Below the pieces are notes generated by a model. It ran no database searches. It worked only from the letters and a program-made list of their open reading frames with translations, and had not been told where the DNA came from. A DNA stretch of 64,000 nucleotides from a virus: positions 4,575-68,574 of IMG/VR virus record IMGVR_UViG_3300021093_000062. One strand, given 5' to 3'. The position numbers and the translations under genes are program-made. This document shows, piece after piece, positions 1,182 to 17,567 of the stretch (positions within the stretch are counted from its first letter, which is position 1; each line of letters opens with the position of its first letter).

Positions 1182-2217
1182 TTGGCTCCACCCTATAAAA
1201 ACAGGGGAGCCTGTAGCATTGTGGGGAGGAAGTGGATGGGCACGCCTGGGTCAGTATGTTGACCACCTCCCATTTGAAGTACACGTTGGTGTACTCACTT
1301 GGTATCACGACAGATTTGTTGTAGTATCTGAGGATAAAGAGATGCACGAAGTAGACGTGATCTACATGCAACGTTTAATGCATGAGGGGCTTACCCAGCA
1401 CGTGCCCATGGCTATCGCAAATGGGCAAAAAATAATAAACGACCTCGATGATTGGTATTGGGGTCTAGACACCTCAAATATGGCGTTCTTGCATAACCAC
1501 CCAAAAGTTAACAAAATTGAGAACATCAACAACTACAAAGCAATCTTGTCAAAGTCCATGATTTTAACTGTCAGTACCACCTATCTTGCTGATAGGGCTT
1601 CATCATTTGTAAGGTGCCCAATACAGGTTATTGAAAACACTGTAGACATCAATCGATTTACACAGACAACCTACACAGACACCAACACTCCAGTTGTTGG
1701 ATGGGTGGGATCAACAGCACATCGAAGCAGGGACATTGAGACACTAAAAGGTGTGCTTAACCCAATGGCAAAGAGTGGTTCAATAACTCTTTACCACGGT
1801 GGTCACCACAGTGGTGCACCAACCTTTGCAAGCAGGCTTGGGGTTTCAGAAGACCTGGTAACTGTAGAAGACCTGCGCCCAGCTGAACGTTACCCAGAAC
1901 TTATGAAAATGGATATTGGGATTGTTCCACTAAACAAGACTCCGTTCAACATGGCAAAATCAGACATAAAAGGTTTAGAGTATGCAGCGTCAGGAATTCC
2001 ATTTATTGCCCAAGATCTTAATGCATACGTGAATTTACACAAAAAATTAAATGTAGGGTTTATAGCAAACAAGCCAAAGGACTGGGTGAAGCACATAAAA
2101 TACTTGTCAAACCCAGACAATCGTAGAAATGTTGGAATTGAGCTACGTTCCCGCATACAACCACGAGACATATCCTGCGGTGTACAAAAACTCACAGACT
2201 TAATCAGTAACATATGA
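1153..2217 (+). CDS. Glycosyltransferase (GT-B / GT4-like)
   Basis: 'DLDD', 'VGWVGS', 'DIGIVPL..FN.AKSDIKGLEYAASGIPFIA' typical of phage GT-B enzymes; start uncertain (1111 or 1153). Confidence 0.85.
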   Translation: MLRLGIVSGDWLHPIKTGEPVALWGGSGWARLGQYVDHLPFEVHVGVLTWYHDRFVVVSEDKEMHEVDVIYMQRLMHEGLTQHVPMAIANGQKIINDLDDWYWGLDTSNMAFLHNHPKVNKIENINNYKAILSKSMILTVSTTYLADRASSFVRCPIQVIENTVDINRFTQTTYTDTNTPVVGWVGSTAHRSRDIETLKGVLNPMAKSGSITLYHGGHHSGAPTFASRLGVSEDLVTVEDLRPAERYPELMKMDIGIVPLNKTPFNMAKSDIKGLEYAASGIPFIAQDLNAYVNLHKKLNVGFIANKPKDWVKHIKYLSNPDNRRNVGIELRSRIQPRDISCGVQKLTDLISNI

Positions 2218-2606
2218 TTACCACAAGACAGCTTAAATGGCTTGACTACGCTGTCGATGTTTCATCGACAGCAACACACTCACAATGGAGAGTGGGAGCA
2301 GTGCTCGTAAAAGGTGGAAGAGTGCTGAGCATGGGTGTAAATCGATATAGAAATTTACCTTCTCAGGTTGACCTTGAAGGGGTTTCGTACCATGCGGAAG
2401 AGGTTGCTTTGAAGCGTGCTGGGGATGCAACAGGAGCGACAATATTTGTCGCAAGAGTTACCAGAAATGGGCACCTTGGATTGGCAAAACCTTGCGAAAG
2501 ATGCCAAGAACTGTTGCATGAGTATGGGGTTCACTCAGCGATTTGGACCGAGCCGTCGGGGTTTGGAAAATCGAAAATTGATGACATGATTTTCAGCCGG
2601 ATTTGA
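2214..2606 (+). CDS. Zinc-dependent cytidine/dCMP deaminase family protein
   Basis: HAE...PCxxC deaminase motif. Confidence 0.85.
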   Translation: MITTRQLKWLDYAVDVSSTATHSQWRVGAVLVKGGRVLSMGVNRYRNLPSQVDLEGVSYHAEEVALKRAGDATGATIFVARVTRNGHLGLAKPCERCQELLHEYGVHSAIWTEPSGFGKSKIDDMIFSRI

Positions 2607-2703: not shown

Positions 2704-3147
2704 TCAAACTGGCCAATGATACGGAAGGTCATTAGGAACAGCTGGGAAGTGTGGAGCGTAGTGGCCTGAGAGTTTACGCAACAGGTTTGATTGATGAGAC
2801 ACCATCACCTTTTGTTCAACTTCTTCATCATCAAGCCACCAAGGTAAAACTGGTAGAGAATTTGCTATTACTGGGTCCTTAGTCATTACTACTGCACTCT
2901 TAACTAGACAAGTGTCTTTGTACCCTCTTTTCACCCATTCATCGCAAATAGCAACTTGATACTGTAACAGGGCTTTTTCATAACCTCTCCACATCTTTAC
3001 CGCTGGATGGTTTCTCCAACCTGTGGACACACCAACCAAGCAGTTGATTATCTGAAGGTTTTCAACACGTTGCTTGCCGAGACGCTTGTTGTCTAAAACT
3101 TGTGCGTTTTGTCTGTAGTTTTTGCCGTAAGGCAAGAAAGTTTGCAT
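2704..3147 (-). CDS. MSMEG_6728-family / pyrimidine-dimer DNA glycosylase-like protein
   Basis: 'MQTFLPY...LDNKRLGKQRVE..Q...GWRNHPAVKMWRGYE...SHQSNLLRK...LPYHWP' family signature. Confidence 0.85.
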   Translation of the reverse strand: MQTFLPYGKNYRQNAQVLDNKRLGKQRVENLQIINCLVGVSTGWRNHPAVKMWRGYEKALLQYQVAICDEWVKRGYKDTCLVKSAVVMTKDPVIANSLPVLPWWLDDEEVEQKVMVSHQSNLLRKLSGHYAPHFPAVPNDLPYHWPV

Positions 3148-3386: not shown

Positions 3387-4010
3387 TTAAGTCCACACCG
3401 TGTCGTTGGGCATACTTGCAGAAGTGCACCGGCGACGAATCTTGTGACGAATCTTGTCTTTGTCTTGTAAGAGGTTCGACGGATCGTCAAATACAAGCGG
3501 GAACTTTTCAGCAATACGCCACAAAAGACCGGCGTCAGACATTCGTGCGATGTTTTTGTCCCAGTTGATCACTAACAAATCTGACTTTGGCGGGCATACC
3601 CCCCGCACATCATGTTCGGTCAACACACGATCTTCGTGCATTACGAAGACAAACAGGTCAACACCCTTTCTATTGAGTATTGACCGTAACGAATAATACG
3701 AATTCGTTCCGACCATGACGACCTTATCAAATTCGTTAAAATCGTAGCTGTCCCCATTGATGATTGCTATGAGGTCGGGCTCGGACCAGTCGTCCGAGTG
3801 TCGAACCAGGCCCGCTTGCCGACGCAATCGCCATTCCGGCAAAGACCGGAACGTCTCAATCTTTTTTGGCAGGTCCCAGCAGCTAAGGAATTCGTGCGAA
3901 TCAACGAAATGGACTAGCTTGTCGTTGTCTTTAACTAGCTGGCAGGCCAAAGCAAGGCCAAACGTCGAAGCTCCGACGCCACCTCCTGCTTGTGCAATTG
4001 CAATTTTCAT
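3387..4010 (-). CDS. Degenerate ParA/MinD/Ssd-like P-loop protein
   Basis: N-terminal deviant Walker A 'AGGGVGAST'; C-terminal 'WD..IAR..DAGLL'; AGGAG RBS before ATG 4010. Confidence 0.55.
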   Translation of the reverse strand: MKIAIAQAGGGVGASTFGLALACQLVKDNDKLVHFVDSHEFLSCWDLPKKIETFRSLPEWRLRRQAGLVRHSDDWSEPDLIAIINGDSYDFNEFDKVVMVGTNSYYSLRSILNRKGVDLFVFVMHEDRVLTEHDVRGVCPPKSDLLVINWDKNIARMSDAGLLWRIAEKFPLVFDDPSNLLQDKDKIRHKIRRRCTSASMPNDTVWT

Positions 4011-4032
4011 TTTAATTCTCCTTTTTCTCTTT

Positions 4033-4551
4033 TTAACCAAACATAATGTCGCCGTACATAGCGTACTGCCAGAACAGGTCCTGGCTTTCGCTGTCCACGT
4101 CGTCTTCTATTACGTCTTTAAGCAAAGTTTGAGCCCAAACTTGATCCACGGGCAAAGACTTTAAAACTTCGATAATGTCTGGAACACTGAAAGTTTTGGT
4201 TACTTCGAAACGGGAAACGTGCCCCAACTTGCTTATAGCACGCGCCTCAATCTGACGGACGCGCTCGCGGGTGAGATTGAATTGCTTGCCCACTTCCTCG
4301 AGGGTGCGGGGTTCGCCCCGATCGAGGCCGAAGCGAAGTTTCATGATCTCGCGCTCGAACTCGTCGAGAGTGTTTTCTGGGTCAACCATAGTAATAGTTA
4401 TGAGGCCATCTTGTCTTTCAACGCGATTAACCCAACTATACCAAGCATTGCCGGTTAACATGTCAAAAACTTCGTTTTCATCCAAAGTTAATGTTGTTGG
4501 CAACAACAGTGTAAACATGTGTTTTTTTGTTTTCATTTTCATTTGAGTCAC
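4033..4551 (-). CDS. Small phage protein carrying an inserted sigma-70 region-4 (HTH) domain
   Basis: '[44 protein letters not shown]' closely matches the RpoD/SigA region-4 consensus; no regions 2 or 3. Confidence 0.85.
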
Positions 4552-5018
4552 ATCTCTTTCTGTAGTGTGTCTGGGTTGTAACCAATGTCGATTAGAAACT
4601 CTCTGAGTCTTTTTATCTCGGCATTGAGGGCATGGTACAGGTGCTGTCTTTCGATGTTTTCAATCAACGCCACCTTTTCTAAATGTTCTGGATTACAGCA
4701 AAGCGTGTTACGGCAAAGGTGATCCAGAGTTTCTGCTTTGGTCAAACTTACATGCTTATGCTGTTCATAAGACCATCTGTGTGCTTGATAGGCTTTGTTG
4801 CCTATGTACATTCGCCCGTATCCTTTGTCTACGGTGCCTGTCCATATCCAACACCCATCATCTGTTTTTTTGATGTTCTTCCAGAACTTATCTTCTGGAA
4901 GCTTGGATTCTTCAATTACGTGCAGAACTCCATCACGCTTTAGTTGTTTGTAATGGGCTGCACATAATCCTTTTGCTACTACCGGTTTATTGCACACCGG
5001 CCCTCTACATAGCGCCAT
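4548..5018 (-). CDS. HNH endonuclease
   Basis: 'CWIWTG...GYG...AHRWSY...[16 protein letters not shown]...EN' with N-terminal Cys/His zinc motif. Confidence 0.9.
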
Positions 5019-5065: not shown

Positions 5066-5317
5066 CTACATGTTTGCTTTTTTTTTAGCTCGTCTTTGGC
5101 GTTCCTTTGTGCGTTCTCTTGGGCATAGACCACCAAATATTCCAAATCTGTCTACCTCTTGGTTGATATTCAGTGATTCTTCCAAGCATTCTGTTTTCAC
5201 TTTGCACGAGTTGCATATCTTTTTTGCTGGGCGACTTGATTGTCCTCTTTCAATAAAAAAGATTTCAATAGGTTTTCCTCTGCAAGCAGCGTGCTCTAGC
5301 CAATTTGAATTTCTCAT
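5066..5317 (-). CDS. whiB: WhiB-family Fe-S transcription factor
   Basis: Four Cys (C..CxxCx5C), GIFGG turn, basic C-terminal tail. Confidence 0.92.
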   Translation of the reverse strand: MRNSNWLEHAACRGKPIEIFFIERGQSSRPAKKICNSCKVKTECLEESLNINQEVDRFGIFGGLCPRERTKERQRRAKKKANM

Positions 5318-7288: not shown

Positions 7289-8749
7289 TTATTTTCGCTT
7301 TCTGTACGAGTCCAGGACTCCGTTTTGTATTTGTTCTAGCAATACCTCTCCTTGCCCGTCAATTAGAATGCCGGTAGAAAAGGCTTTTTCTTCAAGGACA
7401 CTCCACAATCTTTCATCGATCGTCTCGCATCCTTCGATGTGGCACAGAGGTATGGTTATGTGTACATCAACTGTTTGTGATATACGGTGTAACCTATCTT
7501 CTGCTTGTTTCAGTGAGGCAGGATTCCAAGGTAACTGGGCAATGACACCACGATAGTTTTGGTTTACACCATTACCAGTAAGTGTTAGCCCAGTACCAGC
7601 TGAGATAATCTGCCCAACCATTACTCGTGAAGCACCACTGTTGAAGTCGTTGACCGCTGCTTTCTTAGCGCCATCTGACATACCACCCCGTACTTCACAG
7701 GGATTGTACTTAAATAACCCAGCAGTAAGGGCATTCATTGTGTCTACGTGCTCGGCAACAATGAACATTCCCCCCGGCTCGTTGTCAAGTATCTCCGATA
7801 CATGTTTAATAATGGCATTTGTTTTTGCTCTACCAACATGTTTTCGCAGATAACCCAGTTGAACCAAAGCGTACGCCCTTTCTGCTCCCGTAGTGTTTCT
7901 GTTTATTGACTCAAGCCACGCAATAAGATCGTTATGTACATCCATGTAATCTTGCACTGCGTGGCCAGAGCCTTCCAAAGCAATGGTCGCCCGAAACTTA
8001 GTAGGAAGGTCAATTACCTCGTCTCTTTTACGTCTGAACATAAAAGAGCCATGCATACGGTTTTTAAGGTCTAGGTCATTGGTTGATACTCTACCAACTT
8101 TTCGACCGTTTACTGTTTTACCAGACCACGGTGCGTAGTGTTGATAGAAATGACCAATACCACCTATTCCTGTCCATGCTTTAGAACCCAGGAAATCTAT
8201 CTGAGATACTAGTTCTATGTTTCTACCGTTTGGAGCGGGCGTACCACTCATTAGCACTTTAACCGCATCACTTGGCAGATAGTTACTTATGCTTATCAAA
8301 GCCTTGGTGCGCTTTGATGGATTTTTGAAGAAATGTGCCTCATCAACTATGATTGCATCTATTTCTCCCATAAGAGCTACTGACCAGTGAGTTAGAACTG
8401 CGTTACCGATGATGTAAACATCTGCATCAGGGAGTATGTGCACAGACTGACCTCTGAGCACAGCAGTCTTTAGGTTAGGGTTGAATTTGCTTATCTCGCT
8501 AACCCAGTTCCACACCAAACTTGGTGGAACTACAATTAGTACTTTCTTGCGCTCTTGTTCAACTATGGCAGACGCCACAGCAATGGCTATTGCTGTTTTA
8601 CCTAAACCCATATCTAACGCAAGATAAGACTGCTTTTTAGAAACAGCCCATTCAAACGCTTCGATTTGGTAGTCGTACAGGCTCATGTTGAGCGATGGTA
8701 AAACTAGTTGGTTGGACGGCGGCACGATTGCCGACCTAGGCTGTCTCAT
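7289..8749 (-). CDS. SNF2-family (DEAH) helicase
   Basis: 'DMGLGKT', 'DEAH', 'MSGTP', 'WNP..LKQAEDRLHRISQ'. Confidence 0.92.
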   Translation of the reverse strand: MRQPRSAIVPPSNQLVLPSLNMSLYDYQIEAFEWAVSKKQSYLALDMGLGKTAIAIAVASAIVEQERKKVLIVVPPSLVWNWVSEISKFNPNLKTAVLRGQSVHILPDADVYIIGNAVLTHWSVALMGEIDAIIVDEAHFFKNPSKRTKALISISNYLPSDAVKVLMSGTPAPNGRNIELVSQIDFLGSKAWTGIGGIGHFYQHYAPWSGKTVNGRKVGRVSTNDLDLKNRMHGSFMFRRKRDEVIDLPTKFRATIALEGSGHAVQDYMDVHNDLIAWLESINRNTTGAERAYALVQLGYLRKHVGRAKTNAIIKHVSEILDNEPGGMFIVAEHVDTMNALTAGLFKYNPCEVRGGMSDGAKKAAVNDFNSGASRVMVGQIISAGTGLTLTGNGVNQNYRGVIAQLPWNPASLKQAEDRLHRISQTVDVHITIPLCHIEGCETIDERLWSVLEEKAFSTGILIDGQGEVLLEQIQNGVLDSYRKRK

Positions 8750-16525: not shown

Positions 16526-16633
16526 CAACGAAAGCATAGACCCATACATAGGCACAAGTTGTGACATTTGTCACATGATAGTGACAAGTGCCACATGGTG
16601 AGACATTTGTCACATGGTGAGACATTTGTCACA
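16526..16633 (-). promoter_or_regulatory. Promoter with four tandem CRP-type boxes
   Basis: -10 TATGCT (16538-16533); TGTGA-N6-TCACA-like sites at 16560-75, 16580-95, 16599-614 and 16618-33. Confidence 0.65.
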
Positions 16634-16760
16634 CTAGGCACCTCGTACTGGACGTCGCACCGTTTGCGACGCAAACCGGTCCAACCAGACGCAGGGAGCA
16701 GAGATGCCCCTCACACTAGGCTGGGTATGGCAGGGCAGATTTCTCAGCCGGATTTCGGGC

Positions 16761-16796
16761 AAAGAAGAAAGCCCCCCACCCTTGCGGGCGGGGGGC
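16761..16796 (-). terminator. Intrinsic terminator of the GC-rich gene
   Basis: GCCCCCCGCCC-GCAA-GGGTGGGGGGC followed by TTTCTTCTTT on the minus strand. Confidence 0.75.
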
Positions 16797-16814
16797 AATC
16801 TCCCTGGGGGGGGG

Positions 16815-17366
16815 TCAGAGGCTCTTGGAGAGAGCCACGACCAACGCTACCAGTTGCTGCTGAGCAACTGTCCGCTGATCGGCGGGTGTGGTCACCAATG
16901 CCAACTGGCAGGCTGCGAGTTGGCTGGTGGCACGCTCTGTGGCTATCCGCACTTCACGCTGTGCGGGGGTCTCTCCGTTGTTGGATTGACCCTCGGTCAG
17001 CCGTGCCCACGCTGCGTTCTGGTCTTGTGCCCCTGCGAGCAACGCCCTCAGAACGTCCGCGGACTTCTTGGAAGCCAAGAGCCGGTTCCAAACCGTCTGC
17101 CCCGCTTTCGCGGAGCCGACCGCCGGAAGGCTGAAGAAGAGTCCCCAAACGATGAGGATTCCCTCCCAGCCCGCGGGTAGCGTGTTGGCGGTGTACGCCT
17201 TAGCGATGACGTCCCCGATTTCCCTGCGGATTTCGGTCTCCTTGAGAGCCGCAATAGCGGGGGCGGAGGGACGCAAGTCGTCCCACGCTGCTTTCGCGGT
17301 TGCCTTGGAGTTGGACGCTGTGGCATCTGCCAAGAGCGTTTGCCTGACTGTGTCTAACACCGACAT
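16815..17366 (-). CDS. Ala-rich helical hypothetical protein in a GC-rich island
   Basis: AAGGAG RBS, own terminator, GC-rich codons unlike the flanks. Confidence 0.7.
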   Translation of the reverse strand: MSVLDTVRQTLLADATASNSKATAKAAWDDLRPSAPAIAALKETEIRREIGDVIAKAYTANTLPAGWEGILIVWGLFFSLPAVGSAKAGQTVWNRLLASKKSADVLRALLAGAQDQNAAWARLTEGQSNNGETPAQREVRIATERATSQLAACQLALVTTPADQRTVAQQQLVALVVALSKSL

Positions 17367-17567
17367 GTTGTCTCCTTGTCGTAATGCCGGCGCTTGTCGC
17401 CGGTCATGCCATCGTTATGGGGGCGACCGGAAAGCGTCCTCGGTAGGGCCCAGCCCCCAATGATCACCCCACTACGCAATAGCCCTATTCTAAATGGGGG
17501 GTTACCCGTGGGTAACTGGGCACCTGGGTATAGGGTAATATAGACCTATACACAAGAAGGTTAACAC

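Follow-up and report, generated by a model that had tools for sequence, protein, structure and literature searches.

A host-type sigma-70 region 4 inserted in frame into a small acidic protein of an uncultured freshwater myovirus

The DNA analysed here (the window) is a stretch of 64,000 nt from a 68.6-kb IMG/VR virus record that is estimated to be 74% complete. The phage is a myovirus with genes for a tail sheath, portal, large terminase and tape measure, and it also carries two tRNAs and two WhiB genes. Close to the start of the window lies an open reading frame encoding 172 aa (Table 1) that begins at a GTG at position 4551, the start codon overlapping the stop of the upstream HNH endonuclease gene. 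Alternative starts are available at ATG codons at 4542 (residue 4; 169 aa) and 4518 (161 aa), the latter of which aligns with the starts of the insert-less homologues described below. Gene callers place the start at residue 4, and the resulting 169-aa protein (P0001) is found in identical form on 11 contigs, the longest of which is 93 kb. One WhiB-like gene is located two genes away, as recorded in the initial annotation, with only the HNH endonuclease gene in between. The second lies just upstream of the window start (G000:C1:4217-4411; Pfam Whib, E = 8e-17) and has a counterpart at 7720-8094 in the sister-phage locus L002. Other neighbours include a DenV-like pyrimidine dimer glycosylase (2704-3147, minus strand; Pfam Pyr_excise, E = 1e-25) and a dCMP/cytidine deaminase (2214-2606, plus strand). 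Further into the window (16563-17400), a 19-nt tandem repeat of 3.7 copies (16563-16633) adjoins the window's most GC-rich stretch (up to 67% GC), where an Ala-rich open reading frame (16815-17366, minus strand) with no Pfam match could be a foreign piece or a structural gene.

Table 1 Features of the chimeric gene and its neighbours, in window coordinates.
Feature	Position	Strand	Evidence
Chimeric gene	4033..4551	minus	ORF list; P0001; AlphaFold2 model (mean pLDDT 90.4)
Scaffold N-terminal part, aa 12-60: two beta-hairpins and one helix, then strand ITITM and loop DPEN	4372..4518	minus	Alignment with P0002, P0121, L002 and L005; predicted secondary structure
Captured sigma-70 region 4, aa T61-F115: 4.1 helix and helix-turn-helix of 4.2	4207..4371	minus	Pfam PF04545; PDB sequence matches; GC content
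Scaffold C-terminal part, aa 116-172: one strand and three helices; conserved acidic motif DDxDxxxxDxxxQYAxFGxxVYG	4036..4206	minus	Family alignment
HNH endonuclease gene, directly upstream of the chimera	4548..5018	minus	PHROG 3593, 1872 and 826 (E about 1e-28)
Phage WhiB-like gene, 83 aa; four Cys, FF pair, GIFGG turn	5066..5317	minus	Pfam Whib (E = 6.7e-17); alignment
217-aa gene downstream of the chimera; weak P-loop/ParA-like N-terminus	3387..4040	minus	Pfam ParA and AAA_31 (E 0.015-0.036, below cut-off)

Sigma70_r4 (PF04545) was the sole Pfam domain found in the chimeric protein, covering aa 61-109 and profile positions 4-48 of 50 with E = 1.7e-16 and 59.9 bits against a cut-off of 24.1. 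The best of the 67 distinct PDB sequences matched were SigA/RpoD region 4 (E about 1e-16), the top entry being 4g6d, the structure of phage G1 gp67, which was matched via its sigma chain. The initial annotation had read about 50 residues of this protein as sigma region 4, and Pfam, PDB sequence and fold matches alike place the segment far closer to that domain than to generic helix-turn-helix domains. Alignment with insert-less homologues delimited an insert of 55 aa (165 nt), which takes the place of two residues, DG, in a hairpin loop reading DPDGDGEVT in both protein and DNA alignments. The peptide quoted previously stands, and its right-hand boundary requires a small correction because HVSRF is part of the sigma segment as well, the scaffold restarting only at EVTKTF. 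As had been noticed at the outset, the segment is richer in GC than its flanks: the insert reaches 59.4% (GC3 72.7%), compared to 39.5% (GC3 43.2%) for the remaining gene and 45.7% for the window, and only 1.9% of 165-nt windows across the 64 kb are equally GC-rich. Region 2 of sigma, which serves core binding, -10 recognition and melting, was not found in the chimeric protein by Pfam, and a search of the 68.6-kb record (74% complete) for PF04542 was negative at E ≤ 1; a split sigma factor was considered and set aside, as the record in its present extent yielded no region 2.

Two 112-aa homologues of the scaffold, P0002 and P0121, lack the insert. P0002 contains no Pfam domain, aligns with both ends of the chimera and shares 63% aa identity with the scaffold across both halves. 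A tblastn search of the phage collection with P0121 returned no matches. With P0002 as probe, four sister-phage IMG/VR loci (L002-L005) were located that carry a 112-aa insert-less gene at the matching place. The sister locus that was read (L002) is syntenic with the window, in the order SNF2 helicase, several small genes, WhiB, HNH endonuclease, the 112-aa gene, DenV-like glycosylase, deaminase and glycosyltransferase. Neighbouring genes of the window and L002 are 77-92% identical at the nucleotide level compared to only 61-78% (53-69% aa) for the scaffold gene, which therefore evolves faster than its surroundings. The two HNH endonucleases (4548-5018 in the window, 3115-3585 in L002) are 97.5% identical in aa sequence, immediately next to this divergent gene. 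In L002 an extra 135-aa lipoprotein-like gene separates the HNH endonuclease from the scaffold gene, and both the 217-aa ParA-like gene, absent from the matching position in the ORF map, and a 77-aa gene of the window are missing. The neighbourhood of the HNH and scaffold genes is a local mosaic hot spot.

A profile search of 1.84 billion representatives identified 16 proteins at E ≤ 0.001, of which 14 (99-137 aa) were aligned; the two left out were a 40-aa fragment and an 1814-aa protein matched through the loop motif only. A sigma-type insert was absent from all 14 aligned representatives, from P0002 and from the four sister loci, and the insertion point in the chimera corresponds to the most length-variable loop of the family. 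This family is phrog_2355, matched by the chimera over aa 78-172 (E = 0.0016) and by all 16 aligned members (best E = 2e-14). Relatives turn up as hypothetical proteins in 41 Microbacterium phage records, Gillianvirus among them, where the neighbouring genes form an array of hypothetical genes. Unlike the chimera, the phrog_2355 members examined are uninterrupted, while the halves of the scaffold align with them over their full length and share their conserved C-terminal acidic motif. The scaffold itself is strongly acidic (net charge -11, pI 4.05; whole chimera net -9, pI 4.8) and belongs to no Pfam family, with no match better than E 0.013. Against solved structures, Foldseek searches of the PDB gave a best E of 0.23 and VIA-align a best Z of 4.0, and scaffold matches in BFVD were uncharacterised phage proteins only, those in the ESM Atlas viral hypothetical clusters only. 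Taken with the sister loci at the same place, the insert-less homologues strongly support the earlier proposal of a capture into an otherwise unrelated scaffold.

An assembly chimera, in which a phage contig is wrongly joined to a host sigma gene, was assessed as an explanation at the two junctions. The stretch is present in 20 lake or freshwater runs from 18 studies, and junction support was drawn from Logan contigs, rather than reads, of four runs (X1, X12, X14 and X17), of which X1 may be the source sample. The 5' junction was bridged with no mismatch in X1 and X17, and the 3' junction with no mismatch in X1 and X14 and with four differing letters in X12, the bridging contigs having a phage-like depth of 5-33. 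No listed contig crossed the 5' junction in X14 and X12 or the 3' junction in X17, although such gaps are uninformative for contigs. Three observations speak for a chimera: host sigma genes of the same samples have words in common with the insert, none of the contigs listed for the four runs spans both junctions, and one contig from X12 (record 9) leads from phage sequence across the insert and on into host-like sequence. The lack of a spanning contig is accounted for by assembly graphs that break inside the insert at the words common to host sigma genes, and the X12 contig is regarded as an unexplained graph tangle, the other option being a variant. Conversely, zero-mismatch contigs at phage depth bridge each junction in two runs, which makes a chimera unlikely, and none of the host sequences examined is the same as the insert. 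Its nucleotide identity to 80 GTDB loci does not exceed 80%, and high-depth contigs (57-185) from X1, X12, X14 and X17 show 3-5 mismatches per 31-96 nt of insert (window 4241-4368) before continuing into host-type sigma sequence. In addition, the insert sits exactly in frame, swaps out two loop codons and departs at 11 residues, by changes of its own, from a host peptide that is otherwise invariant, and the identical protein recurs on its 11 contigs. An assembly origin is hardly credible on these grounds, and we are confident that the gene encodes a phage protein interrupted by an unrelated host region 4.

The closest relatives of the insert were sigma factors of Acidimicrobiia, with 85% aa identity over 52 aligned residues (44 of 55 positions overall). 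The best 80 loci came from a scan of one genome per GTDB species by query word patterns, which is biased for that reason; 61 of the 80 carried labels of Acidimicrobiia taxa (Ilumatobacteraceae, Microthrixaceae, Iamiaceae etc.; four lineages checked), the others being labelled at phylum level only or as 'bacterium' (13), as 'Actinomycetes bacterium' (4), as a Bifidobacterium MAG (1) and as an Acidobacteriota MAG (1). A protein ranking independent of word patterns returned the same top sequences. Among 301 sampled Actinomycetota genomes, which include 11 unpublished ones, the 85% match occurred in only about ten (one of them the unpublished G270), and the usual 400-500-aa SigA-type genes were 58-63% identical; none of the conclusions drawn here relies on the unpublished genomes. 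Comparison with sigma genes consequently points to Acidimicrobiia as the host lineage and makes the insert a host-lineage marker for this uncultured freshwater myovirus.

Two RpoD-like sigma paralogues are found in Acidimicrobiia genomes (L086, L087 and L088 versus L035, L053 and L018). With an open frame of about 315-343 aa, the donor-type sigma terminates in KLRHPSSDTGARDLL and reaches 299.6 and 302.2 bits against NCBIfam RpoD_Cterm (TIGR02393, cut-off 354), compared to 347.9 and 356.0 bits for the second paralogue. Judged by these sequences, the donor is a principal-like sigma conserved class-wide in Acidimicrobiia, not demonstrably the housekeeping one. As it is the less RpoD-like of the two, the label 'host sigma-A' used in the initial annotation is too specific, while its assignment to sigma region 4 holds. 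The capture had also been called recent, a description that fits lake contigs 93-95% identical to the insert over 60-96 nt but not the ceiling of 80% nucleotide identity to the 80 GTDB representatives. Over these segments the best GTDB representative reached 87%, so a closer relative of the donor lives in the same lakes. The paralogues of genome L088 also differ at the WhiB-docking motif, the donor-type one keeping KLRHP and the more RpoD-like one reading KLRNP, without the docking His.

AlphaFold2 modeled the chimera with a mean pLDDT of 90.4 (86-96 over the insert) as a strand-strand-helix-strand-strand arrangement, followed by the insert as three to four helices at the tip of a hairpin, and then by strand-helix-helix-helix. 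Foldseek superposed the modeled insert on 1ku7_D, Thermus sigma-A region 4 bound to -35 DNA, with an rmsd of 1.1 Å over 50 columns, on 3n97 with 1.0-1.1 Å and on 6onu with 2.7-2.8 Å over 57 columns. Ungapped PDB matches were used to transfer numbering, phage residue n corresponding to residue n+489 in E. coli and n+405 in M. tuberculosis. Phage residues R95, E96, R97, R99 and Q100 correspond to R584, E585, R586, R588 and Q589 of sigma-70, which we take to be the residues that read the -35 hexamer. All five are unchanged relative to the host (TRERVRQ kept), and a single I to V replacement is the sole change in the recognition helix. The equivalent of E. coli R554, presumably a backbone contact, is Phe in the phage insert. 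In E. coli-equivalent positions the insert spans 550-604 and, by the helix limits that we assume for sigma region 4, lacks most of H1. The far C-terminal helix H5 is missing altogether, and residues 116-121 form a scaffold strand in the model, not a helix. As contacts of sigma with the beta-flap are placed 'in and near H1, H2 and H5' (PMC2988021), the flap-contacting parts of the insert are incomplete. The initial remark that the His of the WhiB-docking motif is retained and the Pro lost was accurate, the host KLRHP reading KLGHV in the phage. The docking triad R515-H516-P517 (M. tuberculosis numbering) thereby becomes G110-H111-V112, and because all 80 host loci read R-H-P, the Gly and Val changes are specific to the phage copy. 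Going by residue identities, only the DNA-reading one of the three known region-4 surfaces appears to be intact.

Over its 55 positions the insert carries 11 aa substitutions relative to the host, and most or all of these fall on the phage branch, since among the 80 loci the host peptide shows practically no variation. Five of the 11 are located in the last ten residues, by the junction, and three polar-to-hydrophobic replacements close to the junctions (R to F, P to V, D to F) give the impression of an adjustment to the scaffold; together the substitutions raise the net charge of the module from 0 to +2. Compared to the closest host gene, pN was 0.115 and pS 0.478, giving a corrected ratio of about 0.16, a rough estimate because pS is near saturation and inflated by a compositional shift towards the AT-richer phage; pN between hosts was 0.03. 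These values indicate that the insert is under constraint through purifying selection. Scanning viral contigs with the full protein yielded no further chimera alleles beyond its own record, and in a scan of metagenome contigs the 80 kept loci were all ordinary sigma genes matched via EEVGKQFN, none of them extending over the scaffold.

Having no region 2, no region 3 and no linker, the chimera cannot be a sigma factor. With only its DNA-reading surface apparently intact, binding to -35-type sequences would be its most likely action. In our reading, the smallest complete region-4 module of a principal-like sigma-70, consisting of the 4.1 helix and the -35-reading helix-turn-helix, was copied from its host by a phage that infects freshwater actinobacteria of the Acidimicrobiia type, and this copy landed in a hairpin loop of a small, very acidic early protein of the phrog_2355 family. 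We tentatively propose that the product acts as a free-standing mimic in competition with region 4 of the host sigma itself, binding -35-type sequences and either occluding the -35 boxes of that sigma's promoters or bringing the acidic scaffold to them, and host transcription might thereby be damped or redirected early in infection. That the protein binds DNA, competes with the holoenzyme and affects the host is inferred, and we consider such a mimic, our leading interpretation, possible rather than probable. The five retained -35-reading residues, the predicted region-4 fold, the signs of constraint and the degradation of the other surfaces count in its favour. With 11 of 55 positions changed, however, retention of the five residues could statistically be due to chance (at most one change among about ten contacts; estimated P about 0.4). 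The main argument against it is the acidity of the whole protein, which disfavours contact with DNA and might shield the helix-turn-helix, and the putative loss of the contact at the R554 equivalent also counts against. Isolated region 4 binds -35 DNA only weakly.

In the main competing explanation, the same module could instead serve as a protein decoy, a displayed region 4 that soaks up factors docking on this domain and withdraws them from RNA polymerase; candidates are host WhiB-like regulators, the phage's own two WhiBs, class-II-type activators and anti-sigma-like proteins. Wbl proteins, three phage Wbls among them, bind isolated sigma-A region 4 tightly, and all Wbls tested, including those three, dock on a site centred on H516-P517 (PMC13013590). 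Their binding to region 4 depends on His516 in mycobacteria (PMC6954389), and this His is kept as H111 in a record encoding two WhiB genes, of which the one two genes upstream of the chimera retains the FF pair and the GIFGG turn of the aromatic patch. The remainder of the triad argues the other way. R515H abolishes binding of WhiB3 and WhiB7 (PMC3905903), and H516A, H516F and P517A each abolish that of WhiB1 (PMC6954389), and the phage-specific Gly and Val at these positions, though themselves outside the mutants tested, therefore weigh against canonical docking. Only 4-5 residues separate the site from its junction to the scaffold strand, so access may be hindered, and encoding both a WhiB and a WhiB sponge is not obviously useful to a single phage. 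A variant in which the altered G-H-V site renders the copy selective for one Wbl can be envisaged. Prediction of a complex between the chimera, the neighbouring phage WhiB and a 4Fe-4S cluster scored 0.00 in both runs (mark 0.32) and, run without controls, is informative neither way. Overall, a decoy seems somewhat unlikely, and the initial suggestion that the protein acts as a decoy for WhiB or as the partner of the phage WhiB is, as judged from the docking residues, somewhat disfavoured.

RNA polymerase binding is common among small acidic phage proteins, and the chimera might also act at the beta-flap in the manner of T4 gp33 and AsiA, with its module sitting on the flap or otherwise displacing host region 4 and the scaffold adding contacts, so that host -35-dependent promoters are turned off and phage promoters favoured. 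Region 4 is the natural ligand of the flap (PMC2988021), and partial-sigma proteins of actinophages that displace SigA exist, as described for D29 gp53 (bioRxiv 10.64898/2026.10.05.756390). The missing H5 and the modeled strand at residues 116-121 nevertheless weaken flap competition, and a free module would have to outcompete a tethered one, which leaves this explanation quite improbable. A related arrangement, in which the scaffold docks on host RNA polymerase and the graft takes over -35 reading in trans as a replacement region 4, its G-H-V site leaving it blind to host WhiB-like regulators or reserved for one phage WhiB, is highly improbable; were it true, the insert-less sister alleles would represent the ancestral state, and sigma would be appropriated by a re-engineered copy of a host domain, not by a domain-binding protein. 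Finally, the insert may be a tolerated passenger that entered a permissive loop by illegitimate recombination, leaving the scaffold to do its original job with a functionless region-4 piece. The variable length of the loop, the presence of the insert in one lineage only and its still host-like GC3 would fit such an event. Against it, the insert corresponds to almost exactly one complete structural domain, in frame and free of stops, dN/dS is about 0.16 at roughly 20% nucleotide divergence, the hydrophobic changes near the junctions resemble adaptation to a new context, and the lineage is widespread in lake metagenomes. We therefore regard a passenger as unlikely.

Phages take over host transcription with sigma factors of their own or by means of small proteins directed at region 4 or the beta-flap, and T4 AsiA and gp33 act at this node (in part PMC2988021). 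Together with phage G1 gp67, these proteins target the same step as would a region-4 mimic, namely -35 recognition by region 4, and they differ in kind because they are not relatives of sigma and have region 4 or the flap as their binding target, whereas the chimera is itself a region 4. Full-length phage sigma factors (phrog_351) have region-4 homology in common with the chimera, which lacks their region 2. Compared to region 4 of the Acidimicrobiia RpoD-family sigma of about 315-343 aa, the chimera has the same predicted fold and the same recognition-helix residues, but it is devoid of regions 1.2, 2 and 3, the linker and the C-terminal helix and bears the 11 substitutions, including G-H-V for R-H-P. 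The nearest described case is mycobacteriophage D29 gp53 (bioRxiv 10.64898/2026.10.05.756390), a minimal sigma mimic with a domain 2/3-like architecture and no domain 4 that displaces SigA from core. Both are actinophage proteins built on a partial sigma architecture and proposed to compete with host sigma, and they are converse in design, gp53 being a distant mimic of domain 2/3 and the chimera a recognisable host copy of domain 4 only. Phage interference at the region-4 step is known; what appears to be new is a recognisable host region 4 carried as an insert within an unrelated phage protein, for which no description was found in full-text literature searches, while supplementary files, which lay outside the search, might list similar proteins.

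Closely related phages that have this gene either with or without the insert provide a natural before-and-after pair for phage tampering with host transcription, one that allows asking what an isolated region 4 does in a cell, and the substitutions on residues experimentally critical for WhiB docking offer a natural probe of that interface. Another free-standing region-4 protein was observed on an ENA contig of 2531 nt: P0003 (162 aa) lacks region 2 and consists of two tandem Acidimicrobiia-type copies of region 4 (FNLTRERIRQIEA...).
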